Source of the DNA: an uncultured Elusimicrobiaceae bacterium | Lineage (GTDB): Bacteria; Elusimicrobiota; Elusimicrobia; Elusimicrobiales; UBA9959 | Assembly (NCBI GenBank): GCA_964435105.1 | Contig: CAYSYJ010000002.1 | Coordinates: 1-39,373 of the forward strand | Length of the DNA: 39,373 bases | Direction: 5' to 3' | Shown: in pieces, positions 24,754-39,323 of the stretch | Layout: the number at the start of each line of letters is the position of its first letter | Position numbering within the stretch: position 1 is the first letter of the stretch | Notes under the pieces: model-generated | What the model was told of the DNA's origin: nothing | What the model saw: the letters and a program-made list of their open reading frames with translations, nothing else | Database searches by the model: none | Position numbers and translations under genes: made by a program

Positions 24754-26295
24754 GTGAAACACTTCAATATTTTCGCCCTGCTTTTACTGCTCGCGGCGCC
24801 CGCGAGGGCGGCCGTGGTGGCCGTCTACCACACCAGCGACGCCCATGGCTGGTATTCCGCCCGCCCCGCCCTCTGGGACAAAGAAAATTCCACCCGCACC
24901 ATAGGCGGCTTTCCCGCCATAGCGGCCATGCTCGCCAAAGAGACCACGCCCTACCTGTTGCTCGACGCGGGGGACACCTTCCAGGGCACGCCCGAGGGCA
25001 TCTTTACCCGCGGCCAGGCCAGCGTGACCCTGATGAACCAGCTGGGCTATGCCGCAGGCGTCCCCGGCAACCACGACTATGATTACGGCGAGCCGGTGCT
25101 TAAGGCCATGATCTCCAGCGCGACATATGCCATGCTGGGCGCCAATATCTATTACAAGGACGGCCGCCACGTCGATTACCTCAAGCCCTATAAAATATTC
25201 GAGCGCAATGGCCGCCGCATCGCCGTGCTGGGCCTGGCCGGTACCCATACCGCCACTAATACCCTGCCCGCCTATGTGAACCACCTGGAGTTCCGCCCCG
25301 AGGCGGCCACGGCCGCGGCCCTGCTGCCGGAGATAAAAAAGGAAAACCCCGACGCCGTGATCGTGCTGGCGCATTTGGGCCTGGACGAGCGGCTCTCGCT
25401 CAAGCGCATAGACATTTCCTCCTGGACCTTCGCCGTGCCGCCGCCCGGCACGCTGGAGATCGCCCGTGCCGCCGCCGGCATAGACCTGCTGCTGGGCGGG
25501 CATAACCATACCGGCCTGCTCAAAGGCTGGCGCGACCCCGTGAGCGGCACCTGGTTCGGCGAGAGCAATTACGGCCTCTCCTATATCACCCGCGCGGAGC
25601 TCACTTTCGACGACGCCACCGGCAAGCTCACGGATATAAAGGTGCGCCTGGTCGAACCCTGGACCGACCAGGTCGGGGAAGCCCCGGCCGTGCTAAAGAC
25701 CGTGGCCGGCTTCAACGCCGACGTGGAGCAGGCCATGGGCCGCACCGTGGGCGAGGCAAGAACCGATATCGGCTTCTCGGCCGAAGGTTCGGATTCGCCT
25801 ATCGGCAATTTGCTCTGCGACCTCACCCTGCAGGCGGTAAATACCGACCTCGCCTTTCACAATACCAAGGGCATACGCGCCGAACTGCGCAAAGGGCCGG
25901 TGCAGCTGCGCCATATCTACCAGGCGGTGCCTTTCGACAATACCATAGTGACCATGCGCCTTAACGGCGCGCAGATACGCAAGCTGCTCGCCGACAATTT
26001 GCGCTCCGACTGGAGCTATATACAGCTCGCCGGGGTCGAAGTGGCCTACCGCCCAGGGCCCCAGGGCCCGACGAAGCTGAGCGTCAAGCGCCATGGCCGC
26101 GAGATAAAGGACAAGGAAGTCTTTACGGTGGCCACCAACAGCTATCTCGCCGGAGGCGGCAATAACGGCGACGTGTTCGGCGGTGGGCAGGACATCAAGG
26201 ACACCATGCTCGCCGTGCGCGACCTCTTTATCCACGCTTTCGAGGCCGGCCCAGTGAGCGCGCCCGCCACCGGCCGCATCAAGCGCCTGAAATAA
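24754..26295 (+). CDS. Secreted bifunctional metallophosphatase / 5'-nucleotidase (UshA-like)
   Basis: Signal peptide. VYHTSDAHGW, LLLDAGDTFQGT, GNHDYDYG and GGHNHTG metallophosphoesterase motifs, plus a 5'-nucleotidase C-terminal domain (FHNTKGIRAEL...VPFDNTIV). GTG start. Confidence 0.9.
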   Translation: MKHFNIFALLLLLAAPARAAVVAVYHTSDAHGWYSARPALWDKENSTRTIGGFPAIAAMLAKETTPYLLLDAGDTFQGTPEGIFTRGQASVTLMNQLGYAAGVPGNHDYDYGEPVLKAMISSATYAMLGANIYYKDGRHVDYLKPYKIFERNGRRIAVLGLAGTHTATNTLPAYVNHLEFRPEAATAAALLPEIKKENPDAVIVLAHLGLDERLSLKRIDISSWTFAVPPPGTLEIARAAAGIDLLLGGHNHTGLLKGWRDPVSGTWFGESNYGLSYITRAELTFDDATGKLTDIKVRLVEPWTDQVGEAPAVLKTVAGFNADVEQAMGRTVGEARTDIGFSAEGSDSPIGNLLCDLTLQAVNTDLAFHNTKGIRAELRKGPVQLRHIYQAVPFDNTIVTMRLNGAQIRKLLADNLRSDWSYIQLAGVEVAYRPGPQGPTKLSVKRHGREIKDKEVFTVATNSYLAGGGNNGDVFGGGQDIKDTMLAVRDLFIHAFEAGPVSAPATGRIKRLK

Positions 26296-26453: not shown

Positions 26454-26783
26454 ATGGAACCGCATGAGCGCAGGCTGGTGCATTACCTGCATAATGGCAA
26501 GAACGTTTTTTCAGGGTGGCTTAACGGCCTGCCGGACATAGAGGCCAGGGCCGCGGTGCGCATAAGGCTCGACCGAGTCGCTGCCGGGAATTTCGGGGAC
26601 TGCCGGCCGGTAGGTGAAGGGGTCTGGGAACTGCGCATTCATTACGGGCCTGGCTACCGGGTTTACTATGGGGAAGATGGCCCGGCCGTGGTCCTGCTGC
26701 TCTGCGGGGGAGATAAGCGCGGTCAGCGCAGGGATATAGCCCGGGCGCGGAGATTTTGGGCGGATTACCGGAGGCGGATATGA
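26454..26783 (+). CDS. higB: Type II toxin, RelE/ParE superfamily (HigB-like addiction module killer protein)
   Basis: FSGWLNGLPDIEARAAVRIRLDRVAAGNFGDCRPVGEGVWELRIHYGPGYRVYYGEDGPAVVLLLCGGDKRGQRRDIARA is the canonical killer-protein family sequence. Confidence 0.85.
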   Translation: MEPHERRLVHYLHNGKNVFSGWLNGLPDIEARAAVRIRLDRVAAGNFGDCRPVGEGVWELRIHYGPGYRVYYGEDGPAVVLLLCGGDKRGQRRDIARARRFWADYRRRI

Positions 26784-27145
26784 AACTTACGCGTTCCCAC
26801 GACAGTTATATGAAAGAGGTCCTCGCCAACCGCGAGGAGGCGTCCGCCTACCTAAATGCCGCCGCGGACGCTGGCGAGCTTAAATATCTCCTGGTAGCAA
26901 TACGCCGGATCGTGGGTGCCAATGGCGGCATGGGCGCCCTGGCCAAGGCCGTAGGCATGAGCCGCACTACCCTTTACAAAACCCTTTCACCCAAAGGCAA
27001 TCCCGGCATAGAGACCCTGCGCGCCATCCTGGGCGTATACGGCCTGCGGCTGGGCTTCTTCCCGGAGCCGGAGACAGGCAGCCGCCACCGCCCTTCCGGG
27101 CGGCCCAGCGCACACTCCCGCCACACACACCACCCGCACCCATAA
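26780..27145 (+). CDS. higA: HigA-family HTH antitoxin (addiction module antidote protein)
   Basis: ATGA overlap with the toxin stop. EEASAYLNAAADAGELKYLLVAIRRIVGANGGMGALAKAVGMSRTTLYKTLSPKGNPGIETLRAILGVYGLRL. An unusual Arg/His/Pro tail runs into the 38-bp direct repeat. Confidence 0.8.
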   Translation: MKLTRSHDSYMKEVLANREEASAYLNAAADAGELKYLLVAIRRIVGANGGMGALAKAVGMSRTTLYKTLSPKGNPGIETLRAILGVYGLRLGFFPEPETGSRHRPSGRPSAHSRHTHHPHP

Positions 27146-27279
27146 GGCCCAGCCTGAATATAGGGCCAAGGCCTCTTACGGGCTGATTCAAATACGACTA
27201 GAATAATAATATCGGCCCTTGTAATCCCCCGAACAGGCGGGGGAGCATCCACCGCCCGGCCTTAACCGGGTGTAACCAG

Positions 27280-27318
27280 GGGAAACGGAAGGTCTTCCGT
27301 TTCCCTGTTTTTATTTTT
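27280..27318 (+). terminator. Strong intrinsic terminator immediately upstream of the RBS of the islet's first gene
   Basis: gggaaacggaag-gt-cttccgtttccc followed by tgtttttattttt. The RBS GGGGAG and the ATG at 27331 follow directly. Confidence 0.8.
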
Positions 27319-27330
27319 AGGGGAGAACAA

Positions 27331-28077
27331 ATGATAAAGAAAATTCTGATGACTCTGGCGGCCAGTCTTTTGCTGGCCGCGGCCGGCCTGGGCGGATTCG
27401 CCTGGCATATCTATAAAAAAGACTTCGGGGTCGACTATAAAGGGTGTGCCAGACTTCACTATAACTGGAAATATTATTTCGCCGAGCTCCCTAAAGAGGA
27501 CTATGTGTTTAAGGGAAGGTTGTTTTCTTATAAATATCCCAAATTCAGGATGGATAGCGAGATGGTTCCCGTGGAGGATGAGAATGGCGGGCTTATCGAG
27601 GATAGTGGGCACGTTTTAATGGTGCGGTGGAGCCGAAAAGATCCGGACTTCATTAAAACTGAATTAGTGGGGCAGTTGGAGGATAAAGAGCCAAAACCAT
27701 TTTCCCGAAAATTTCTCGGGTGGTTGTCTCCTGAGGACTCATATGTCGAAAGCGCCAGCTCTCAAAATGACTACTCAAAGTCCTACGATGTTAAATCTGA
27801 AAAGATAAAGCTTAAGCACGGCGGAACGGCTTTGCTTATTTCTCTTCAGAGTAAAGTCCAGGATCGGCCCCATGTCCGATTCTTGGCCGGAGTTACTCCT
27901 GCTGGGCAGGTGTTTAGGGCAAAGATCAGGGTTCGTTTTAATGTTTCAGAGGGTGGCTACAGGGATCTTGTCCTGCGGCCAACTGGCACATATGGCTCAA
28001 CTATCAATCCGGAGCGAGATGCCCAAAGCGCCTATTTTCTGAAAAAGTTCATAGAAACGCTGAGTTTTGAGAAATAA
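27331..28077 (+). CDS. Membrane-anchored hypothetical protein (islet gene 1)
   Basis: N-terminal TM/signal anchor MIKKILMTLAASLLLAAAGLGGFAW. Lys-rich, low-GC codon usage. No family recognised. Confidence 0.6.
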   Translation: MIKKILMTLAASLLLAAAGLGGFAWHIYKKDFGVDYKGCARLHYNWKYYFAELPKEDYVFKGRLFSYKYPKFRMDSEMVPVEDENGGLIEDSGHVLMVRWSRKDPDFIKTELVGQLEDKEPKPFSRKFLGWLSPEDSYVESASSQNDYSKSYDVKSEKIKLKHGGTALLISLQSKVQDRPHVRFLAGVTPAGQVFRAKIRVRFNVSEGGYRDLVLRPTGTYGSTINPERDAQSAYFLKKFIETLSFEK

Positions 28078-28086
28078 GGGAGAAAT

Positions 28087-29358
28087 GTGAAAGAGCAAAT
28101 ATTGCTGATTTTTCTCCTGCAGTTCTTTTGTTCTATAGCCAAGGCTACATCTGGCGACTCGGCTTTTGAGTCTCTTGTCGCCGCAGCCGGTGGAACGGAT
28201 TTGGCTGTAACGTTTGACGGATATACTCCTTCAGGGAGAGAGGGGCTGGTAGGCCGGCCTGTGGGCGCAGCCGGGATGATTCCTGTCGGGTCGGGGGTTC
28301 CTGTCAAAATTGCCGATAGGGAGCAAGTCGTTCCTTTGCCGGTTTTTGCCGGTACCGGGGACTCCGAACTCGGCTTGAAAGCAAATGAGAGGACAGTGCT
28401 GGACACGGCTACAGAGAGGCCTGCGGTAGATAGGGCGCTGAAAAAACTCGCTTCAATCAAGTCCGGGAAAGAACTTGTTGAATTCATGGACTCTGAAGGG
28501 GTGACTCTGAAATGGAAAATATTGGGGGCCATAGGATCTGAGCCAAATTACGCGGAAACTTGTCGACCGGATGCCTGTGGCGGGGAAAAAGTGATTTTTC
28601 TAAACAGTTTTCGCGGCGGGGGACGGGACTTCAAAGATTTGTTCCTGAACCCTAATCCTACATTTCTAGCCGTTACCATCGCACATGAGTTGACTCACCT
28701 GTCTGACTTTAAGGATATAAAGGGCGTGCCCTCTCCAGGCACACAGGCGCATTTGTTCCTGGAGCTTAATGGCTGGTCGGCAGGGGTTTATGTCTATCAC
28801 CAACTATTGATATCCGGAGTGGCCCCCAAACCTAATTCGCCGGAGGAAAATCGGGACATCCAATTGATCCGCTTGGATTTGGCGATAAGGGATTATATGA
28901 ACGGAGGGAAAAGACCGGTAGTCGCTGACTTTAATAAAGTGCTTCAGTTGGGGGGATTGGGGTTTGACGAGTATGTGGGCGCTGTTACCAGGCGACCGCG
29001 AAAAGGCAGCACATCTTTGGCTGGTGTTGTCTCTCATGTGTATGGATTAAATGACTCATTTGCGGACCTGCAGAAACCTCCATCATCCGCTTCTGACATT
29101 GAAAAGGCCTCTTATAAGCAGGCGAAAAAGATAAAAAAGTCTTTGGACCTGTCTACGGCGACCTATATTAAATGGCGGAAGGCCACAGTTGACGCCCCGC
29201 CCCCTCCTCCGCCGTCACAGCCCCATAATCCGTGGCATCATCAGCCCGGCGGAGACGACGATGGCGGCGGATCCGGTGGGGGCAGTGACGGAGCCACGGG
29301 CATAGATGTCGACGACTGGCACCCAACCCCGGGAACAGGCGACGCCACCTGGGATTGA
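28087..29358 (+). CDS. Secreted hypothetical protein with an HExxH zinc-metallopeptidase motif and a Pro/Gly/Asp-rich tail (islet gene 2)
   Basis: GTG start after GGGAG. Signal peptide MKEQILLIFLLQFFCSIAKA. FLAVTIAHELTHLSDF. C-terminal APPPPPPSQPHNPWHHQPGGDDDGGGSGGGSDG. Confidence 0.6.
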   Translation: MKEQILLIFLLQFFCSIAKATSGDSAFESLVAAAGGTDLAVTFDGYTPSGREGLVGRPVGAAGMIPVGSGVPVKIADREQVVPLPVFAGTGDSELGLKANERTVLDTATERPAVDRALKKLASIKSGKELVEFMDSEGVTLKWKILGAIGSEPNYAETCRPDACGGEKVIFLNSFRGGGRDFKDLFLNPNPTFLAVTIAHELTHLSDFKDIKGVPSPGTQAHLFLELNGWSAGVYVYHQLLISGVAPKPNSPEENRDIQLIRLDLAIRDYMNGGKRPVVADFNKVLQLGGLGFDEYVGAVTRRPRKGSTSLAGVVSHVYGLNDSFADLQKPPSSASDIEKASYKQAKKIKKSLDLSTATYIKWRKATVDAPPPPPPSQPHNPWHHQPGGDDDGGGSGGGSDGATGIDVDDWHPTPGTGDATWD

Positions 29359-31177: not shown

Positions 31178-31219
31178 GGGGCCCGGTTACGCGCTGACGC
31201 GGCCGGGCCCCTGCTTTTT
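31178..31219 (+). terminator. Intrinsic terminator after the PLD gene
   Basis: ggggcccgg...ccgggcccc stem followed by tgcttttt. Confidence 0.6.
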
Positions 31220-32666
31220 ACAGCACCTCCCAGTGACCGCCCTTATCCGGGCCTGCGCGGCGCAGAACGCCCTTAAGCTTTAGTTTTGTCAGGTTCTTTT
31301 CAACCGCCGTTGTGCTGATGCCTATCGCCGCCGCAAGTTCGCTTATGGTCGAATAGTTGTCTAAACTGATCAACCGGAGTATTTTAATTTCGTTTTTTCT
31401 CGGTTTTTCTCCCAACTTTTCTCCCAACTTTTCTCCCAACTTTTCTCCCAACTTTTCACCCAACTTTTCACCCAACCTTTCACCCAACCTTTCACCCAAC
31501 CCCTCTCCCGCCAAAACTTCCCTGGTTTTAACTTCTTTAAGGGAAAACTCCGGGGCACGGTAAAAAATAGCCCTGAAAAAATTAGAGATCTCGAAAATGG
31601 GCTTTCGCAGGCCTGCTTCCTCCATCAAATTCCGCATTTTGCCTATGCCGGAGCCGATACGCTCCACATTGCCAACCCTGTGGAACAAATCGGCCAGGAG
31701 CAGGTTTCTGCGCACCGAGGCCCTGCCGAAATCTTTCGGCGCGAGCCCGGAGGGAAGGCCGCCAGGATTCTCGATTTCAACGCGGTCGTCGAATACATTA
31801 ACGTACAGGCTGGTGCCGCGCAGGCTGTAATCGCGGTGCACCACGGCGTTCACCAGCGCCTCGCGCAGGGCGGGCAGTGGCAGTTCGTAAATATCTTTGC
31901 GGTCCAGTTCCAGGATTTCGCTGCGCACGTTCAGGTGTTTCTTTATAAAGGCCATGGCCTCCGCCAATTGTTCCGGCAGGGTGCCGCGCACGTCCTTGCG
32001 GTCGTATAAATGCAGTTTGTCTGCGCCTTTGAAGGCGCATAGTATGGTTTCGCAATGCGGTATGAACCGGGCCGGGGCGGCCGCGAACATGAGCGCCCCC
32101 GCATTGACCGCCCCACCGTCCCGCCAAACCCCGAGGCTGGCCAGGATCTTTTCCAGGTTGGCCCTGCCCGGCCTGAAGGAGGCGCCTGCGGCTTTCAGAA
32201 AATCTTTAACTTTCGCCAGCGGAATATCTTTCAATTCCAGGCCCCGGCAGGGCAGGCTTTCGAACAGCAGGTCCGTGGTTTCGCGGAAAATGGCCCGCAC
32301 CTCCTGCTGCGACATTTTCTGGGTGACGGCGTCCAGGCGGCGGAAATAACCGGACGAGCAACTGTAGGGTTTTTGCGTGCCTTCGGGAATCTCCAGGGCC
32401 ACCGCGCCGGCGCAGGCGGTGATGCCGGTTACCGGCACATGGGGTTCGCAATTACGCGCGAGCGACAGGATTTCCGCTTTAAGCTGGTTCGAGAGCGCCG
32501 CCCCCGTTATGCGCCCGCTATCGGCCACGCCGAGCAGTATCACCCCGCCCCGCGCATTGGCAAAGGCCACCATGTCGCGGTCTATCTTGGGAGAATACTT
32601 CTCCTTGAATTCCACGGTAAGGCCCTCGCCTTCCGCGATAAGCAGTTTGACTGTTTGCTCGTCCAT
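31218..32666 (-). CDS. AlbA_2 (Schlafen-like divergent AAA) + HATPase_c_4 + C-terminal wHTH protein, often annotated as RecG-like or transcriptional regulator
   Basis: EGEGLTVEFKEKYSPKIDRDMVAFANARGGVILLGV (AlbA_2). LREALVNAVVHRDYS...VEIENPGGLP...RRNLLLADLFHRVGNVERIGSGI (HATPase_c_4). C-terminal wHTH ILRLISLDNYSTISELAAAIGISTTAVEKNL. An internal (LGE[RK])n repeat. Confidence 0.8.
   Translation of the reverse strand: MDEQTVKLLIAEGEGLTVEFKEKYSPKIDRDMVAFANARGGVILLGVADSGRITGAALSNQLKAEILSLARNCEPHVPVTGITACAGAVALEIPEGTQKPYSCSSGYFRRLDAVTQKMSQQEVRAIFRETTDLLFESLPCRGLELKDIPLAKVKDFLKAAGASFRPGRANLEKILASLGVWRDGGAVNAGALMFAAAPARFIPHCETILCAFKGADKLHLYDRKDVRGTLPEQLAEAMAFIKKHLNVRSEILELDRKDIYELPLPALREALVNAVVHRDYSLRGTSLYVNVFDDRVEIENPGGLPSGLAPKDFGRASVRRNLLLADLFHRVGNVERIGSGIGKMRNLMEEAGLRKPIFEISNFFRAIFYRAPEFSLKEVKTREVLAGEGLGERLGERLGEKLGEKLGEKLGEKLGEKLGEKPRKNEIKILRLISLDNYSTISELAAAIGISTTAVEKNLTKLKLKGVLRRAGPDKGGHWEVL
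31405..31500. repeat. In-frame 12-bp tandem repeat x 8 (ttttctcccaac / ttttcacccaac / ctttcacccaac) encoding (LGEK/LGER)n
   Basis: Eight contiguous 12-mers with degenerate units on both flanks. They translate to GERLGERLGEKLGEKLGEKLGEKLGEKLGEK in the linker before the wHTH. Confidence 0.9.
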
Positions 32667-32767: not shown

Positions 32768-34630
32768 TCAGTCGGGGACGGCTTTGAGGAGGGCCGCGCA
32801 GCCGCGGTCCTCGTAGCGCTTAAGGACTTTCTTGTCCTGCTCCAGCTGCTTCTGCAGGTTCCACTCCGGGTCCAGCTCCTGCTCCATGGTCACGCGGTCG
32901 GCCGCGGCCACGCCCTGTATGGCCTTCAGCTCGTCGCGGATTTCGCGGCAGGTCTCCACGCGGCCGCGCAGGTCCTCGCAGCTGAACTTGAGCTTGTCGA
33001 ACACCATGTCCGAGCTGAGCGCCTCGCCGGCCTTCTCCGCTTTCCAGATAGCCCCGCAGGCCTGCGCCCTGTCTTTGGGCACGGGCTGGGCGGCGGCGGG
33101 GGAAGCGGGGGCGGCCTGCCCGGGCGGCGTCACGGCGGGTGTCGCGGCCGGGGGCGTGGCCGAGACCGGCTTGGGCGCCGGGGGCGGCTGGGGAGTAGGC
33201 GACGGCTTTTGCGCGGCCGGCTTTGGCGCGGGTGCCGGCGCGGGCCGGGGCGCGGGCTTAGCCGGCGGCGGGGATGGCTTTTTTACAACCACCGGGCGGC
33301 CATTATAGGCGGCCAGCGCCGCTTTTGCTTCTTCCAAACCGGTCACCGCCTCGGCATATTTGGGATATTCGGCCACAACCGCGGCGTAGGCCTCTACCGC
33401 CTTGGCCGGCGACTTGGGCAGGAATTTTTTCGCCTCGGCCAGCCGCGCCTTCACCGCCTTGATCTGGTCCACGCGCTCCTGGGCGCGGGCGGCGTAGTCC
33501 GACGCGCGCACCACCGGGTTCTGGTACAGGTATTCGGCGTCGGCCAGGCGGCCGTCCTTGAGCTCCAGCTCCGCCACCTTGAAACGCGACGAGGCCAGCT
33601 TGGGGTCATTGTCCGGCGCGGCCACCATATAATCCTCGTAATGGTCTATGGCCGCCTGTATATCGCCCTGCAGCGCCTTGATATCGCCGATGGCATAATG
33701 GCTGTAGGCCGCCTCCAGCGAGCGCGGGTAAATAGTGATTATGCGCGAATAAGCGCTGATGGCCTCGGCATTGCGCGCCTGCTCCACCAGCCGGCCCGCG
33801 CGCGCGTAGCGCTGCGCGGCGCTGTTGAGGAAAAGCTGGTAGCCAGCGCCCGCCGCCGCGAGCCCGGCGAGGAACAGGAACAGAACCGTCTTGTTGATGA
33901 CGAAAGGTTTGCGCGCCGGCTTGGGAGCCGGGGCGGTTTTGATCTCTGCCGCCGGCGCGGGGGCCGGTTCGGGCAGCGGCTCCGGCGGTGCCTCCAACTT
34001 GGCCTTTTGCACCGGCTCCGGACCGGGCTCGCGCAGAAAGACCGGCAAATCCTTCAGCTCCGGCAGGGCTGGCGGCGATATCAGCTTTGGCATCGGCGCC
34101 GGTTCAGGTTCAGCCGGCTGCGGTGCCGGCTCCGGGATTGGCACGGGGGCAGGGGCGGGCTCGGGGGCTGGCGCGGGCTCTGGCTCCGGGAGCGGGGCCG
34201 GCTCAGGCGCCGGCATGGGAATAGGTTGTGGCTCCGGCTGAGGCATAGGCGCCGGTTCAGGCGCAGGCAAGGGCTCGGGTTTAAATTCTGGAAGCGGCGG
34301 CAGCGGCTCAGGCGCGGGGGCGGCCTTAAAGGCCGGTATCTCTACAGGAGGCAGGGCGGGGGCAGGCCGCGGCGCGCTTAGCGACGCCGCCTCCGCCGCC
34401 GGCAATTGCGGCTCCGGGGCCTTAACCGGCTCCGGCTGCGGCGCGGGCTCAGGCTTTGGCTCGACCTTCGGCCCCGGGAAATTCTCTTTTATCGCCTCCC
34501 TGATGCGCGCGGGCGCGCCTGCGGGGGCGTTCTCCTTAAGCCAGTTCTCGTTCTTTACCCGGTCGTCGAGCCGCGCCAGGATCTCCTGCAGGTTGCGCAG
34601 CCCGTTCTCCAGGTCTTCGTCGTAAGCCAC
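32768..34630 (-). CDS. Single-pass membrane protein with Pro-rich (PEPAP) spacers and TPR repeats
   Basis: GTG start. N-terminal coiled segment, long PEPxP low-complexity region, TM VLFLFLAGLAAAGAGYQLF. TPR-like YARAGRLVEQARNAEAISAYSRII...AAYSHYAIGDIKALQGDIQAAIDHYEDY. A second Pro-rich spacer and a Cys-containing C-terminal domain. Confidence 0.7.
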   Translation of the reverse strand: MAYDEDLENGLRNLQEILARLDDRVKNENWLKENAPAGAPARIREAIKENFPGPKVEPKPEPAPQPEPVKAPEPQLPAAEAASLSAPRPAPALPPVEIPAFKAAPAPEPLPPLPEFKPEPLPAPEPAPMPQPEPQPIPMPAPEPAPLPEPEPAPAPEPAPAPVPIPEPAPQPAEPEPAPMPKLISPPALPELKDLPVFLREPGPEPVQKAKLEAPPEPLPEPAPAPAAEIKTAPAPKPARKPFVINKTVLFLFLAGLAAAGAGYQLFLNSAAQRYARAGRLVEQARNAEAISAYSRIITIYPRSLEAAYSHYAIGDIKALQGDIQAAIDHYEDYMVAAPDNDPKLASSRFKVAELELKDGRLADAEYLYQNPVVRASDYAARAQERVDQIKAVKARLAEAKKFLPKSPAKAVEAYAAVVAEYPKYAEAVTGLEEAKAALAAYNGRPVVVKKPSPPPAKPAPRPAPAPAPKPAAQKPSPTPQPPPAPKPVSATPPAATPAVTPPGQAAPASPAAAQPVPKDRAQACGAIWKAEKAGEALSSDMVFDKLKFSCEDLRGRVETCREIRDELKAIQGVAAADRVTMEQELDPEWNLQKQLEQDKKVLKRYEDRGCAALLKAVPD

Positions 34631-34701: not shown

Positions 34702-34730
34702 TTGCCAGCCCGAACGCGAAGATATAGAAT
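34702..34730 (+). promoter_or_regulatory. Promoter TTGCCA-N17-TAGAAT upstream of the MazG-like/DUF2075 operon
   Basis: TTGCCA at 34702-34707 and TAGAAT at 34725-34730. Alternative: TAGTAT at 34758-34763, 6 nt before the ATG, which is the same geometry as the fur promoter. Confidence 0.45.
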
Positions 34731-34769
34731 AAAAACAGGTTAGGCGGGAGCGCATACTAGTATAACAAC

Positions 34770-35123
34770 ATGTCCAACATCAAAACCTTAACAAGGGCCA
34801 TTCTCCATTTCCGCGACGCCCGCGACTGGGCGCAATTCCACAACCCCAAAGACGTAGCCATCTCCCTCACCCTGGAAGCAGCCGAACTGCTGGAGCACTT
34901 CCAGTGGAAAACCCCGGCCGAAGTGAAGGCCCACATAAAAGCCCGCAAAGAAGACATCTCCGATGAACTGGCCGATGTGCTGTACTGGGTGCTGTTGCTG
35001 GGCCATGACCTTAAAATAGACATCCCCGCCGCTCTGGCCTCGAAACTCAGGAAGAACGCCCAGAAATACCCCGTTTCCAAAGCCAAAGGCCGCATCACCA
35101 AGTACACGGAGCTGCCTGCGTGA
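34770..35123 (+). CDS. MazG-like nucleotide pyrophosphohydrolase (small all-alpha NTP-PPase)
   Basis: ILHFRDARDWAQFHNPKDVAISLTLEAAELLEHFQWK...ISDELADVLYWVLLLGHDLKIDIPAALASKLRKNAQKYP carries the EExxE/D-type metal-binding helices typical of this family. Confidence 0.8.
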   Translation: MSNIKTLTRAILHFRDARDWAQFHNPKDVAISLTLEAAELLEHFQWKTPAEVKAHIKARKEDISDELADVLYWVLLLGHDLKIDIPAALASKLRKNAQKYPVSKAKGRITKYTELPA

Positions 35124-37501
35124 TAGTCTACAGCGCCGACAAGGCCCGCTTCCGGCAGGATGTCATGTCCAATGACATCGGCGGCATTATCTTTGACACT
35201 TTCAAGGCTGTAACCGGCCACAGCACCCCGCGCAATCAAATCCTCGCCTGGGCCAACTCCCTGCAGTACATGGAGCGCGTCATAGCCGACCCCGCCATCC
35301 CCGAAGACGCCGGCGTGGCCATAGAGTACCACATCCCCCGCTCCAGCAAGCGCATAGACTTCATCCTCACCGGCGCCGACGCCGCCCAAACCGACACCGC
35401 CGTGCTCGTAGAGCTGAAGCAGTGGCAGCACGCCGACCTCACCACCAAAGACGCCGTGGTAACCACAGTCTTCAGCGGCGGCCCCCGGGAAACCGCCCAC
35501 CCCAGCTACCAGGCCTGGAGCTACAAGCGCCTCATAGAGGACTACAACGAGACCGTCCGCCACGAGAAGATACAGCTCCTGCCCTGCGCCTATCTCCACA
35601 ATTACGAGCCGGACAGCGTAATAAACAACCCTTTCTACGCCCAATACACCACAGAGGCCCCCGTCTTCCTCAAGCCCGACGCCCTCAAGCTGCAGGCTTT
35701 CATAAAGCGCCACATAAAATACGGCGACAGGAACAAGCTCCTCTACCGCATAGACCAGGGCAGGATAAAGCCGTCCAAGAGCCTGGCCGACAGCCTGGCC
35801 AGCATGATAAAGGGCAACCAGGAATTCGTAATGGTGGACGACCAGAAGATCGTCTACGAAACCGCCCTCGCCCTGGCCACCCAGGCCGGCACCGGCCAAA
35901 AGCACGTGCTTATAGTTGAAGGCGGCCCCGGCACCGGCAAAAGCGTAGTGGCCATAAACCTGCTCGTCGCCCTCACCAACAAGGAACTGGTCGCCCAATA
36001 CGTCACGCGCAACTCCGCCCCGCGCCTGGTATACGAAGCCAAGCTCGCCGGCACCCTGCGCCGCACGCATATAAGCAATATGTTCAGCGGCTCCGGCGCC
36101 TACCACGACGCCGAGCCCAACACCTACGACTGCCTTATCGTGGACGAAGCCCACCGCCTTAACGCCAAGTCCGGCTGGCTATCGAGCAAAGGCGAGAACC
36201 AGGTAAAAGAGCTCATCAACGCCGCCAAGCTCGCCGTGTTCTTCATAGACGAAGACCAGAAGGTGACGCTTAAGGACATAGGCGAAAAGGAAGAGATCCG
36301 CCGCTGGGCCAAAAAGCACGTGGCCAAGGTAACCGAGCTAAAGCTGGAATCCCAGTTCCGCTGCAATGGCTCGGACGGCTACCTGGCCTGGCTCGACAAC
36401 GCCCTGCAGATAGGCAAGACCGCCAACGACCTGCTGGACAACCGCGACTACGACTTCAGGATAATGCCCGACCCCGCCGCCCTGCACGCCCTTATCCGCC
36501 AGAAGAACGCCGGCAACAAGGCCCGCGTGGTGGCCGGCTACTGCTGGAAGTGGATCAGCCAGAACGATCCCTCGCGCAAAGACATAGTGATAGGGGATTA
36601 CCAGGCGGCCTGGAACCTAAAGGACGACGGCCAGACCTGGATAATACAGCCCGACTCGGTAAGCGAGGTGGGCTGCATACACACCTGCCAGGGCCTGGAG
36701 CTGGACTACGTGGGCGTGATAGTGGGCCCGGACCTTATAGCCCGCGACGGCGAAATTATAACCTCGCCCGCCGCCCGCGCCAGCACCGACAAGAGCCTGC
36801 AAGGCTGGCGCGCCTTGTACGACAAGGACCCAGAAGCCGCCAAGCGCCGCCTGGACCTGCTGATAAAGAACACCTACCGCACGCTAATGACCCGCGGCCA
36901 GAAGGGCTGCTACGTGTATTTCACCGACGGGGAGACGGCCGAATATTTCAAGGGCCTGCTGCAGGCCGGCCCCGCCCCCGCGCCGGCCGAGGGCCTGGCC
37001 GCAAAGCTGAAGAGGCTCTTTAACGTAGAGTCCGCCGTGCCCGACGCGCTTAAATGGAAGGACTACCTGCCCGTCTACAGCCTTGAGGCCGCCTGCGGCG
37101 GCTTTGGCCGCGGCATGGCCGTGGAGCCGCAGGGCTGGGCCAAATGCCCGCCCGGCCTTAAGCCCGACCGAAACATGTTCGTGGCCAGGGTGTGCGGCCG
37201 CTCCATGGAGCCGCGCCTGCACGACGGCGATCATTGCGTTTTCCGCGCCAACGTGGCCGGCACCCGCCAGAACAAAATAGTGCTGGTGCAGCACAGCAGC
37301 ATAGCCGACCCCGACACCGGCGGCAGCTACACCGTAAAGAAGTACACCAGCCGCAAGAAGTACGCCGCCGACGGCACCTGGCAGCACGAGGAAATAGTGC
37401 TGAAGCCGCTGAATGCCGAGTTTGAGGATATTGTTATCCCGAACGCGGAGGATGAAGAGTTCATGGTGGTGGCGGAAGTGGTTAATATACTTGATGATTA
37501 G
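35120..37501 (+). CDS. DUF2075 (Schlafen group-3-like) PD-(D/E)xK nuclease / P-loop helicase-like protein fused to a C-terminal S24 (LexA/UmuD-type) peptidase domain
   Basis: GTGA overlap with the MazG-like stop. IEYHIPRSSKRIDFILTG...VLVELKQW (nuclease core). VEGGPGTGKSVVAINLL (Walker A). CLIVDEAHRL (Walker B). QFRCNGSDGYLAWLDNAL, IHTCQGLELDYVGVIVGPDL and KNTYRTLMTRGQKGCYVYF are DUF2075 hallmarks. C-terminal LPVYSLEAACGGFG...VCGRSMEPRLHDGDHCVF...GGSYTVKKY is an S24 scissile site plus Ser/Lys dyad. Confidence 0.85.
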   Translation: MIVYSADKARFRQDVMSNDIGGIIFDTFKAVTGHSTPRNQILAWANSLQYMERVIADPAIPEDAGVAIEYHIPRSSKRIDFILTGADAAQTDTAVLVELKQWQHADLTTKDAVVTTVFSGGPRETAHPSYQAWSYKRLIEDYNETVRHEKIQLLPCAYLHNYEPDSVINNPFYAQYTTEAPVFLKPDALKLQAFIKRHIKYGDRNKLLYRIDQGRIKPSKSLADSLASMIKGNQEFVMVDDQKIVYETALALATQAGTGQKHVLIVEGGPGTGKSVVAINLLVALTNKELVAQYVTRNSAPRLVYEAKLAGTLRRTHISNMFSGSGAYHDAEPNTYDCLIVDEAHRLNAKSGWLSSKGENQVKELINAAKLAVFFIDEDQKVTLKDIGEKEEIRRWAKKHVAKVTELKLESQFRCNGSDGYLAWLDNALQIGKTANDLLDNRDYDFRIMPDPAALHALIRQKNAGNKARVVAGYCWKWISQNDPSRKDIVIGDYQAAWNLKDDGQTWIIQPDSVSEVGCIHTCQGLELDYVGVIVGPDLIARDGEIITSPAARASTDKSLQGWRALYDKDPEAAKRRLDLLIKNTYRTLMTRGQKGCYVYFTDGETAEYFKGLLQAGPAPAPAEGLAAKLKRLFNVESAVPDALKWKDYLPVYSLEAACGGFGRGMAVEPQGWAKCPPGLKPDRNMFVARVCGRSMEPRLHDGDHCVFRANVAGTRQNKIVLVQHSSIADPDTGGSYTVKKYTSRKKYAADGTWQHEEIVLKPLNAEFEDIVIPNAEDEEFMVVAEVVNILDD

Positions 37502-37556: not shown

Positions 37557-39323
37557 ATGCCAGCTTACGATTTCAAAACCCTGTCCCCATTGGATTTCGA
37601 ATCACTAGTTCGAGATTTGCTTCAAGAGGAGTTAAAAATAACCCTTGAGTCTTTTAAGCCTGGAAGAGACTCTGGTATAGATTTTAGGTATGCGGCTTCG
37701 GTGCGCAACATGCTTGTGGTTCAAGCGAAACACTTCGTGGGAAGTGGCTTTGATAAATTGATTTCTCATTTGGTTAAAGATGAGTTGCCAAAAGTAAAGT
37801 TGCTAAATCCAGAGCGATATTTGATAGCAACTTCGGTTCCATTGAGCCCTTTGCAAAAAGAAAAGATTGTAGTGGCGATGGATAGCACGATTAAAAGTCC
37901 GACAGATATTTTTGGGTGCGATGATCTAAATAATCTGTTGGGGAAGTTTCCAAGGGTTGAGGAGCAGACTTTTAAATTGTGGTTTTCAAGTGTGGCAGTT
38001 CTGGAAAAACTATTGCATTCCAAGCTGAAGAATTTCTCTAGAGGTTCGCTGGAGGGCATACGAGAGAAGTCTAGGGTTTATGTTTCCAATAAGAGTTTCC
38101 AAGAAGCCATTGAATTGATTAAATCCCAACACTATTGTGTAATTGCGGGAGTCCCTGGAATTGGAAAGACAATTCTGGCAGAGATGTTGGGCCTATATTT
38201 TGCGAAGCAGGGCTTTGAGTTTATTCGAATTACAACAGCCAAGGAAGCCTTTGAGTTTGACTTTGAGCATAGTCCAAGATTTCTGTATTACGATGACTTT
38301 TTAGGGCAGACTTCTTCAGCTGATAAACTGGAGAAGAATGAAGACCAGGCATTGATTGAACTTATTGCGGAAATCCGCAGATCAAAAGTATCCATACTGG
38401 TGCTGACCACACGTGGATATATTTTAAATCAGGCACGTCAGGAGTATGCGAAGATTGATTATCTAGCGAGAACTGAACTTAAACCATATGTGGTCGATTT
38501 GGAGAAGTATACTCGAGAAATTAAAGCGAAGATATTGTATAACCACCTATTCTTCTCAACTATTGATAGAAAAGCTCTTCAATTAATTATCAAAACCTCA
38601 AATCTATGCAAGATTATCGACCACCCGAATTACAGTCCGCGTATAATTGAGCACATGACGCGCGCTGTCCCTTCGTGTGGCTTAACCGCAGAAGAGTATC
38701 TGCGCAGTTTCCTTGAAAGTCTTGATAATCCAACGGAAATTTGGAGATATGCTTTTGAACGGCATATCAATTCCGCCTCACGGAACCTTTTGCTGTCGCT
38801 TTTTTCCCTACCGAGTCCAAGTTCTGTGGAAAGTTTGTTCAGAGCGTTTCAATCCATGACGGAAGGGGATGCGAGATCCTTTCGGGAGTCTCTAAAAGAA
38901 CTCGATGGAACGTTTGTAAAGATTCGAGTCGAGTTGGGAAGGACACTGGTAGAATTTCACAATCCATCAGTGCGTGACTTTCTAAATACGTACCTTGCCG
39001 CAAATGTGGATTTGCTGCGGCATGTCGCTGACTGTGCCGCGTTTTGGGAACAGTTAGATTGGCTCTGCAGAAATAGGAATAACGGCGAATTGGGTAAATC
39101 CATAAGAGAGCATGTAATTGGTGCAGATGTCGGGCAGTTTTTTGAAAGAATATCGAAGGCATTGAAATATCCGAGTGCATCAATGATGCGAATTCGCTAC
39201 AACAAGTCTGACATTAAACTTAAAGATTGGAATGTTTCATTGTTGCGAAGAGTTGGAGTCTTGATAGACGTGGCAGTCTCCTACCGAATCGGCTCAGAAC
39301 GATTCCTAAGTGATATAGTGTAA
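37557..39323 (+). CDS. Mrr-type restriction-endonuclease domain fused to a STAND-like P-loop NTPase (Avs-like, short form)
   Basis: N-terminus LSPLDFESLVRDLLQEEL...KPGRDSGIDFRY...LVVQAKH (D...QxK nuclease core). Walker A CVIAGVPGIGKTILAEML. Walker B RFLYYDDFLG. Helical C-terminal region. Strongly AT-rich relative to the rest of the window. Confidence 0.75.
   Translation: MPAYDFKTLSPLDFESLVRDLLQEELKITLESFKPGRDSGIDFRYAASVRNMLVVQAKHFVGSGFDKLISHLVKDELPKVKLLNPERYLIATSVPLSPLQKEKIVVAMDSTIKSPTDIFGCDDLNNLLGKFPRVEEQTFKLWFSSVAVLEKLLHSKLKNFSRGSLEGIREKSRVYVSNKSFQEAIELIKSQHYCVIAGVPGIGKTILAEMLGLYFAKQGFEFIRITTAKEAFEFDFEHSPRFLYYDDFLGQTSSADKLEKNEDQALIELIAEIRRSKVSILVLTTRGYILNQARQEYAKIDYLARTELKPYVVDLEKYTREIKAKILYNHLFFSTIDRKALQLIIKTSNLCKIIDHPNYSPRIIEHMTRAVPSCGLTAEEYLRSFLESLDNPTEIWRYAFERHINSASRNLLLSLFSLPSPSSVESLFRAFQSMTEGDARSFRESLKELDGTFVKIRVELGRTLVEFHNPSVRDFLNTYLAANVDLLRHVADCAAFWEQLDWLCRNRNNGELGKSIREHVIGADVGQFFERISKALKYPSASMMRIRYNKSDIKLKDWNVSLLRRVGVLIDVAVSYRIGSERFLSDIV

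Follow-up and report, generated by a model that had tools for sequence, protein, structure and literature searches.

Near the right-hand end of the window, as we call the whole 39,373-nucleotide (nt) stretch of contig CAYSYJ010000002.1 from an uncultured Elusimicrobiaceae bacterium, a gene for a 117-amino-acid (aa) MazG-like nucleoside triphosphate (NTP) pyrophosphatase is followed by one for a 793-aa protein that combines a probable nuclease region, a DUF2075 helicase and a C-terminal peptidase S24 module of the LexA/UmuD/cI type. We tentatively propose that this module is a portable self-cleaving unit which, on many types of nuclease, couples RecA filaments on single-stranded DNA (RecA-ssDNA) to the switching of these enzymes, either as restriction alleviation or, conversely, as arming in the SOS response, and that the DCTPP1-like MazG protein and the nuclease-DUF2075 protein form a distinct two-gene defence directed at the nucleotide pool and at phage DNA. 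The occurrence of this S24 subtype on restriction nucleases is the most novel lead of the analysis.

Both open reading frames (ORFs) were found where a first-pass annotation, made from the sequence alone, had located them, and the GTGA overlap that it described was read directly in the sequence (gcGTGAtag): the GTG start of the 793-aa ORF (35120-35122) overlaps the TGA stop of the 117-aa ORF (35121-35123). Judged from its sequence, the pair is a horizontally mobile two-gene operon with translational coupling. A sigma-70-like site predicted by consensus scan about 40 nt 5' of the MazG start codon coincides with position 34702, and a pattern scan of the window found no terminator-like site on the plus strand after 37501. 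The features of the operon are the following.

34702..34730, plus strand: promoter-like site TTGCCA-17 nt-TAGAAT (consensus scan, 10/12 matches, pattern only)
34770..35123, plus strand: 117-aa MazG-like all-alpha NTP pyrophosphatase, DCTPP1/RS21-C6-like (Pfam PF12643, PDB relatives, PHROG)
35120..37501, plus strand: 793-aa nuclease / superfamily 1B (SF1B) helicase / S24 protein (ORF, Pfam, full-length homologues)
35120..35860, plus strand: probable N-terminal PD-(D/E)xK / RecB-like nuclease region, residues 1 to ~247 (invariant motifs, predicted secondary structure)
35357-35359, 35411-35413 and 35417-35419, plus strand: candidate catalytic residues D80, E98 and K100, in this order, to which E69 and Q131-x3-Y135 are added (conservation)
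35900..36928, plus strand: DUF2075 / Schlafen group-3 SF1B helicase core, residues 261-603 (Pfam PF09848)
36929..37063, plus strand: low-complexity variable linker, residues 604-648 (alignment)
37064..37498, plus strand: peptidase S24 (LexA/UmuD/cI-type) module, residues 649-793 (Pfam, hhalign, AlphaFold2/Foldseek, PHROG)
37091..37099, plus strand: predicted scissile site Ala658-Cys659 / Gly660, with the bond between nt 37096 and 37097
37202-37204 and 37337-37339, plus strand: predicted nucleophile Ser695 and predicted general base Lys740 (codons verified)

The S24 module and the enzymes that carry it

In order to characterize the C-terminal module, profile, structural and conservation evidence was combined. 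Residues 680-788 matched Peptidase_S24 (PF00717) with 33.3 bits against a cut-off of 23.3, and residues 649-789 matched the PHROG repressor family phrog_4. In hhalign comparisons (probability 89%), for which the LexA and UmuD reference sequences were entered by hand, GRSME aligned with the motif of LexA Ser119 and UmuD Ser60, and YTVKKY with that of LexA Lys156 and UmuD Lys97, in agreement with the catalytic roles that the first-pass annotation had given to the two motifs. An AlphaFold2 model of residues 631-793 reached a predicted local distance difference test (pLDDT) score of 89.3 and a predicted template-modelling (pTM) score of 0.84, and its top 38 PDB matches by Foldseek were all LexA, C-terminal domains of lambda cI, or UmuD/UmuD' (E down to 4e-6), including fragments that contain the cleavage-site region. 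A single-sequence phmmer search of the PDB with the C-terminal 163 aa returned spurious nanobody matches only, and a profile of the C-terminal module (A2) reached LexA weakly (E 0.03-0.09).

Residue conservation was evaluated in 77 family members from other genomes, and synteny and neighbour counts in the best 80 loci. All motifs quoted in the first-pass annotation are present and nearly invariant in the 77 members. Among the S24-bearing relatives, Ser695 was found in 71/71, Lys740 and Ala658 each in 70/71 and Gly660 in 67/71, while the P1 position (659) was Ala in 48, Cys in 22 and Val in one. The Cys-Gly site, which is UmuD-like, defines a clade formed by the window protein, Bacteroidota and Elusimicrobia, and the LexA-like Ala-Gly site occurs in members from Proteobacteria, Desulfobacterota and Verrucomicrobiota. 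The predicted scissile site lies about 35 residues N-terminal of the nucleophile. By these features the module is intact and complete, with an A-A-C/G scissile site of its own.

The fold, the Ser-Lys dyad and an Ala/Cys-Gly bond N-terminal of the catalytic core are common to LexA, UmuD, lambda cI and the module of the window, which differs from them in being placed C-terminal to a 650-residue enzyme, in an extra hairpin (SSIADPDTGGSY) preceding the Lys strand, and in having neither a helix-turn-helix (HTH) domain nor a role as regulator. Scans against Pfam and NCBIfam revealed no HTH family in the 793-aa protein, which is therefore not a repressor, as the first-pass annotation had held; the identity of a LexA-type or cI-type repressor was ruled out on this ground.

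Four loci depart from the pattern. In the clade of L012, L013 and L014, Asp replaces the scissile Gly (AAD-AS) and Ser and Lys are retained, a replacement resembling LexA G85D, which is a non-cleavable mutant. In L010 both the cleavage site and the Lys have degenerated (VAVESS; Lys to Glu). Such natural "uncleavable" variants could help to show the purpose of cleavage.

The same S24 subtype was found on a wide array of enzymes. When 1.84 billion representatives were searched exhaustively by phmmer, residues 641-793 matched 1,656 of them at E <= 1e-3, and 121 at E <= 1e-30. The best 150 matches were 38-86% identical (mostly 41-63%) over nearly the whole module and lay in host proteins of 98 to 1,878 aa. 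According to Pfam scans, the module forms the C-terminus of Type I HsdR-like, Type ISP, MmeI/Eco57I-like, AlwI, LlaJI and Type III Res proteins, and also of McrC, of a DruE/MrfA-like helicase and of GIY-YIG-DUF2075 proteins. The domains preceding it included DEAD/Helicase_C with the MrfA Zn-binding domain and a restriction endonuclease (REase) domain, Eco57I/MmeI methyltransferase-endonucleases, ResIII/SNF2, the C-terminal domains of Type ISP and Type I HsdR proteins, AlwI, LlaJI, other REases, McrC, HsdS, PLD/DUF3427, Schlafen AlbA_2 and GIY-YIG-DUF2075. Genomic context was checked for two of these arrangements, and operons of McrB with McrC-S24 (P0271, L095) and of Type III Mod with Res-S24 (P0183, L097) were each found in independent metagenomes. 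The carriers are identified as follows.

S24-fused carriers: proteins P0183, P0187, P0202, P0204, P0226, P0234, P0238, P0244, P0252, P0258, P0271 and P0287; loci L095-L098

The Ser/Lys dyad was kept in 147 of the 150 proteins, and the scissile site was AA/G in 87 and AC/G in 39 (together 126/150). The C-terminus predicted to result from cleavage was AAA in 86, AAC in 39 and VAA, IAA or LAA in nine. The nearest relatives outside enzymes were cI/Cro-type HTH-S24 proteins and a LexA-like protein in an operon with MutY, both of them classes responsive to RecA filaments. We know of no description of this S24 subtype fused to restriction or defence nucleases. Given its presence on Type I, ISP, II, III and IV enzymes, a self-cleaving switch of this kind would bear on restriction-modification biology in general, and not on one exotic system only.

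These counts also bear on whether cleavage is the main role of the module. It might be mainly structural, serving for dimerisation or for docking on RecA filaments and so bringing the helicase-nuclease to RecA-coated ssDNA, with a cleavage that is incidental, slow or independent of RecA. The C-terminal domains of LexA, cI and UmuD dimerise and bind the RecA groove (8gms, 8trg and 8gmt are among the fold matches), the anti-phage protein Nhi, discussed below, dimerises as well, the L012-L014 clade has exchanged Gly660 for Asp yet kept Ser and Lys, and some LexA-like proteins (IrvR) are reported to cleave without RecA. However, ~95% of the family retain the dyad and the A-[A/C]/G site, as do 126-147 of 150 proteins whose architectures are unrelated. 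Retention this wide would be hard to explain unless cleavage itself were under selection, and we regard a mainly structural role as improbable.

The MazG partner, the nuclease-helicase core and their distribution

The 117-aa protein matched the Pfam family MazG-like (PF12643) with 69.2 bits against a cut-off of 27, showed weaker Pfam matches to MazG, PRA-PH and dUTPase_2, and matched a PHROG "pyrophosphatase" family. Its best PDB relatives were chains of dCTP (deoxycytidine triphosphate) pyrophosphatase 1 (6sqw and 2a3q; E 2.5e-20, residues 7-116). The motifs RDWxQFH, E36-x2-E39-x2-E42 and E66-x-A-D69 were at least 90% conserved in 51 MazG orthologues from related loci, and ExxExxE together with ExAD presumably represents the acidic metal-binding signature of all-alpha NTP pyrophosphatases, so the protein is very likely an active enzyme. 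With DCTPP1/RS21-C6 of the PF12643 family it shares ~40% identity over 110 residues as well as RDWxQFH, ExxExxE and ExxD, a likeness from which a dCTP or 5-modified-dCTP pyrophosphatase activity is inferred; in comparison with eukaryotic DCTPP1 it is minimal, bacterial and translationally coupled to a nuclease-helicase. PADLOC models gave nothing meaningful for this protein (a 14.7-bit WYL match).

In the 793-aa protein, SLFN-g3_helicase (= DUF2075, PF09848) scored 345.2 bits against a cut-off of 24 and was matched from position 1 to 354 of its 354. The MazG-like, DUF2075 and Peptidase_S24 assignments of the first-pass annotation (PF12643, PF09848 and PF00717) all stand above their cut-offs. 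Walker A (GGPGTGKS, K274) and Walker B (DEAH, D342/E343) were invariant in 77/77 family members, as were the superfamily 1 motor residues G271/G273/K274, D342/E343, Q412/R414 and Q524/G525, whereas R587 was found in 75/77 and R592 in 76/77. The top Foldseek matches of the low-confidence full-length AlphaFold2 model were human SLFN11 (7zel, E 2e-8) and then RecD2, IGHMBP2, Dna2, Dda and Pif1; they were used solely to support the helicase class and not domain docking.

The N-terminal region is probably a PD-(D/E)xK nuclease: E69, D80, E98-x-K100, Q131 and Y135 were invariant in 76/76 family members, in the pattern of RecB-type PD-(D/E)xK nucleases, and a beta-beta-beta core followed by a helix was predicted in the low-confidence full-length model. 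A phmmer search of the PDB with residues 1-630 gave no match. The linker between helicase and S24 module had pLDDT below 50 at residues 615-633 of that model, and natural variants without S24 terminate within it, their match to the query stopping at residues 611-631. NCBIfam contained nothing specific for the 793-aa protein, and the PADLOC model PDC-S41 matched residues 5-295 with 60.8 bits (E 2e-17; model positions 7-271 of 657), which suggests a distant relative of PDC-S41 and not a clear member.

The combination of a nuclease with DUF2075 is already known from anti-phage proteins, and PF09848 is already counted as a marker of abortive-infection-type defence. Nhi (S. epidermidis SERP2475; Bari et al. 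2022), like the "Nhi-like" system (Millman et al. 2022), is an anti-phage protein with an N-terminal nuclease and DUF2075; it resembles the window protein in joining an N-terminal PD-(D/E)xK domain, which in the window protein is a probable one, and a DUF2075 SF1B helicase in a single polypeptide, lies in defence islands and on plasmids, and has been proposed to act on ssDNA-containing phage replication intermediates. AbiO of Lactococcus has an REase-like PD-(D/E)xK N-terminus and a Schlafen group-3-type SF1B helicase, has been shown to act against phage and is toxic at high copy number. The PADLOC models of Nhi and AbiO matched the window protein only at residues 239-416 (38.7 bits) and 233-416 (40.1 bits), respectively, and since these profiles match only the P-loop region, the window protein is placed in a separate subfamily despite the shared architecture. 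Furthermore, Nhi acts as a single gene, for which a MazG partner is not reported, and in place of S24 its product has a C-terminus that is glyoxalase-like and poorly conserved; AbiO, unlike the window operon, has neither an S24 domain nor a pyrophosphatase partner. The mode of action is probably shared with both. Human SLFN11, the top structural match, belongs to the same helicase family (PF09848) and is an antiviral nuclease responsive to ssDNA and replication stress, but its nuclease is an AlbA_2-type tRNase and not PD-(D/E)xK, and it has no S24. The pairing links bacterial DUF2075 enzymes to the ssDNA-sensing theme of eukaryotic Schlafen-11.

The searchable literature contained no description of a DUF2075 and MazG pair or of an S24 fusion to such enzymes, and PADLOC-DB v2 had no model for the MazG partner or the S24 tail. 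The first-pass annotation was thus right that no named system, in PADLOC-DB v2 or in that literature, matches the operon; its claim of novelty applies to the MazG partner and the S24 tail, which are new, and not to the nuclease and DUF2075 architecture of the large protein, which is that of AbiO and Nhi.

Full-length homologues of ~800 aa with the same architecture and 60-84% identity were abundant, and when one genome per species was scanned the family was present in at least 591 species-representative genomes, from Desulfobacterota (including Geobacter sulfurreducens), Bacteroidota, Gammaproteobacteria, Verrucomicrobiota, Elusimicrobia, Nitrospira and the Candidate Phyla Radiation (CPR), among others; the family tree disagrees with taxonomy. 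Its presence in cultivable Geobacter sulfurreducens PCA, Halomonas, Bacteroides, Phocaeicola and Parabacteroides offers a tractable model.

A MazG-like gene lies directly adjacent and on the same strand in ~57 of the 67 loci with sufficient flanking sequence (~85%), upstream in most of them and downstream in the Halomonadaceae/Granulosicoccus clade, and the gene pair singled out by the first-pass annotation is therefore syntenic. Clustering of all flanking ORFs from the 80 loci showed MazG to be the sole widely conserved neighbour, and no third conserved gene was detected, the next commonest neighbours being RhuM-like and Fic-like genes in at most 11/80 loci and at variable positions. Forms without S24 occur at two or more places in the tree (CPR and Smithella), on plasmids of Hymenobacter, Marivirga, Methanosphaera and Halalkalicoccus, and in one Microcystis phage record. 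MazG was kept in all five of the 80 loci in which the large protein has no S24, and in Marivirga a gene annotated as "nucleotide pyrophosphohydrolase" overlaps the large gene by 4 nt. Since MazG is conserved even beside S24-less forms, the core unit is taken to be MazG plus nuclease-DUF2075, with S24 as a modular addition. Of the three-part module proposed in the first-pass annotation, then, the pair is conserved but neither addition is obligatory, as ~15% of loci are without MazG and at least two lineages without S24.

The loci without MazG had no consistent substitute in its place, their neighbours being a Mutator transposase fragment, NERD, metallo-beta-lactamase, DUF6933 and unknown genes. 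Some of the closest relatives are among those lacking MazG: at L088, whose protein P0013 shares 76% identity with that of the window, two genes for DnaB_C-type ATPases lie 5' and Hachiman (HamA/HamB) and NERD 3'; in the Elusimicrobia genome of locus L001 there is no MazG within 6 kb. A toxin-antitoxin pair was also considered and found unsupported, as MazG has conserved catalytic residues and the large gene occurs without it.

The genomic contexts of the family are defence islands, a qualitative observation that agrees with the first-pass annotation, since defence genes occur near the operon in this contig and at other loci. On this contig the upstream genes include one for a Schlafen AlbA_2/GHKL/winged-HTH protein, two that resemble a toxin-antitoxin pair (Gp49/HI1420) and a PLD-like one. 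The two genes of G. sulfurreducens PCA (AE017180.2, about 1,481,424-1,484,212; L081) have ParE/Phd and a transposase as neighbours at one end, and at the opposite end a PLD-DEAD-DUF3427 helicase, SIR2, a PRTase with a retron-type reverse transcriptase, HNH and Mrr. Other members adjoin DndB clusters, UvrD with Abi_2 and an integrase, or Hachiman with NERD. The nearest neighbours in the 80 loci were very diverse, with RhuM, Fic, AbiEi, NERD, HNH and SNF2/DEAD helicases recurring.

In Geobacter-type loci (L081, 12426-15551; L022, 8401-11526; L082 and L083) a 1,041-aa protein with PLD, DEAD/Helicase_C and DUF3427 domains is encoded directly 3' of the pair, and by crude clustering of the flanks this family was found in 4/80 loci. 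DUF3427 is a domain linked to modified-cytosine sensing. A 2019 paper described DUF3427 modification-dependent nucleases next to DUF2075 NTPases, exactly the arrangement of the Geobacter locus, which lends weak, circumstantial support to a link with modified cytosine.

Distribution and context also bear on whether the pair serves immunity at all. It might instead act in SOS-linked DNA repair and nucleotide-pool sanitation, with a helicase-nuclease working at stalled forks under UmuD-like regulation and MazG removing damaged dNTPs (deoxynucleoside triphosphates). S24 is a signature of the SOS regulon, house-cleaning is the classical function of DCTPP1 and MazG enzymes, a related S24 protein is encoded in an operon with a MutY-like gene, and SLFN11 acts at stressed replication forks. 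On the other side stand a patchy distribution discordant with taxonomy, the carriage on plasmids and the phage record, flanks that are highly variable, rich in defence and mobile-element genes and devoid of conserved repair neighbours, and the fact that the closest characterised relatives are anti-phage proteins. A role in repair is accordingly, in our view, very improbable, even more so than a mainly structural S24 domain.

Direction of the proposed switch

In the mechanism favoured here, the core would be an AbiO/Nhi-like anti-phage enzyme that loads on DNA with single-stranded regions or on replication intermediates and degrades it, and the S24 tail would be a portable switch borrowed from cI/LexA-type repressors. 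Accumulated RecA-ssDNA filaments would lead the protein to cut itself between residues 659 and 660, and the cut would turn the enzyme off by parting its catalytic portion from the S24 (dimerisation) domain, as a built-in form of restriction alleviation. In most family members cleavage would expose a ...A-A-COOH end like that of cleaved LexA recognised by ClpXP, and damaged, gapped and freshly repaired host DNA would then be spared during the SOS response. MazG is assigned to the core and not to the switch because it is adjacent in ~57/67 loci, is retained in S24-less variants and is the only conserved neighbour; it would most likely hydrolyse dCTP, 5-modified dCTP or dNTPs, the least supported step of the mechanism, and phage DNA synthesis would be starved or phage DNA left unmodified and nuclease-sensitive. 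The pairing thus suggests that manipulation of the nucleotide pool, possibly of 5-modified dCTP, is combined with DNA degradation.

We infer the direction of this switch from three considerations: the same S24 module sits on restriction nuclease subunits that act constitutively, the documented need of restriction enzymes after DNA damage is to be switched off, and a cut after ...AA would mimic the ClpX signal of cleaved LexA. Work by Makovets and Murray reportedly described restriction alleviation through DNA-damage-induced proteolysis of EcoKI HsdR, and the ...VAA end of LexA 1-84 is said, after Neher and colleagues in 2003, to be a ClpX signal. The logic proposed here is the same as in Type I restriction alleviation, in which DNA damage leads to proteolytic removal of the nuclease and host DNA is spared; however, the known alleviation of EcoKI HsdR employs an external protease, ClpXP, and no S24, whereas the present enzymes would contain the protease as a part of the nuclease itself, with direct coupling to RecA. 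A nuclease-helicase carrying S24 as a DNA-damage-triggered off-switch is therefore the direction we put forward, as a guarded proposal, in preference to arming.

Several observations weigh against this proposal. The relatives without S24, presumably active enzymes, stop a short distance ahead of the scissile site, so the cleaved product could be the active form, which would favour arming. In the clade of the window protein itself the new end would read ...EAAC-COOH, a sequence not known as a ClpX signal, and the logic of alleviation is weak for McrC-S24, as McrBC is no threat to unmodified host DNA. The S24 model renders the scissile stretch helical, unlike the strand-loop-strand of LexA, and the full-length AlphaFold2 model is poor (pLDDT 63.5, pTM 0.36). 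Although invariant motifs and predicted secondary structure speak for the PD-(D/E)xK domain claimed by the first-pass annotation, the N-terminal region has no nuclease match in Pfam or NCBIfam. In addition, the AbiO and Nhi matches in PADLOC cover the P-loop region only (38-40 bits), MazG is dispensable in some hosts, being absent from ~15% of loci, and its DCTPP1-like specificity is deduced from ~40% identity alone.

The opposite direction is that of an arming switch, in which S24 would restrain the nuclease-helicase until RecA-ssDNA on phage intermediates or damaged DNA provokes self-cleavage, releasing an active enzyme that destroys phage DNA or aborts the infection. The S24-less variants keep all catalytic motifs and MazG, so that the cleaved product resembles a normal active enzyme; UmuD is activated by the same chemistry; restraint would be useful for an enzyme of this kind, given the toxicity of AbiO at high copy number; in SLFN11, ssDNA is sensed by the DUF2075 helicase domain, which activates the nuclease; and Hachiman is one of the other defence systems for which activation by DNA damage has been reported. 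However, the S24 subtype is found on Type I, ISP, II and III nuclease subunits, which must act upon DNA entry, and a dependence on RecA would defeat their purpose; Nhi works without such a restraint and without killing cells; and an arming switch would turn the nuclease against the host after any ordinary DNA damage. Arming, towards which the first-pass annotation had leaned, is thus not favoured, as S24 on constitutive restriction nucleases fits disarming at least as well, and we hold it to be rather unlikely, though less so than the structural and repair roles.

If the off-switch is true, the self-cleaving domain would be a one-domain answer to how Nhi, AbiO, Hna and Gabija avoid the damaged or replicating DNA of their own cell, and would explain the post-damage restraint of restriction enzymes beyond EcoKI, which has been poorly understood so far.

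Surroundings of the operon in the window

The guanine-plus-cytosine (GC) fraction of the operon was 0.60-0.63, compared with 0.62-0.70 across most of the window; the lower-GC stretch noted in the first-pass annotation is thus present, but over the operon the drop is only slight. Directly 3' of the operon lies an Mrr_cat + nSTAND3 gene (37557-39323, plus strand; PADLOC candidate PDC-S73, 469 bits), with a GC fraction of 0.42-0.50, well below the remaining window. This gene appears to have been separately acquired, because its GC is much lower than that of the operon. Beyond the window, the source contig (L084) continues after it with an IS3-type transposase and DUF6339.

On the other side, the operon is separated from the AlbA_2 gene by a gene (32768-34630, minus strand) that is not conserved beside the family at other loci; its 620-aa product has long low-complexity stretches rich in Pro and Ala as well as weak tetratricopeptide repeat (TPR) matches. 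The flanks given in the first-pass annotation were therefore correct for the Mrr-STAND gene, whereas the AlbA_2 gene is not an immediate neighbour. The latter (31218-32666, minus strand) combines Schlafen AlbA_2, HATPase_c_4 (GHKL) and a winged HTH, has weak PADLOC matches to modules associated with prokaryotic Argonaute (pAgo), and contains in its linker a 12-nt tandem repeat present eight times at 31405-31500 (97% matches), encoding (GEKL/GERL)n.

Further upstream, where the accessory region has its edge, a small overlapping pair (26454-26783 and 26756-27145, plus strand) probably constitutes a toxin-antitoxin module; the source contig annotates the two genes as Gp49 (HigB-like toxin) and dnstrm_HI1420 (antitoxin-like). 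At 27214-27284 on the plus strand, Rfam RF03165 identified a purine riboswitch aptamer of the 2'-dG-II type over its full length (79.2 bits against a cut-off of 60, E 4.7e-19). The aptamer lies ~0.9 kb downstream of a 5'-nucleotidase gene (24754-26295); the GC fraction falls to 0.51 across this stretch, and 3' of the aptamer there are two ORFs with no Pfam match (27331-28077 and 28087-29358) and a PLD-like gene.

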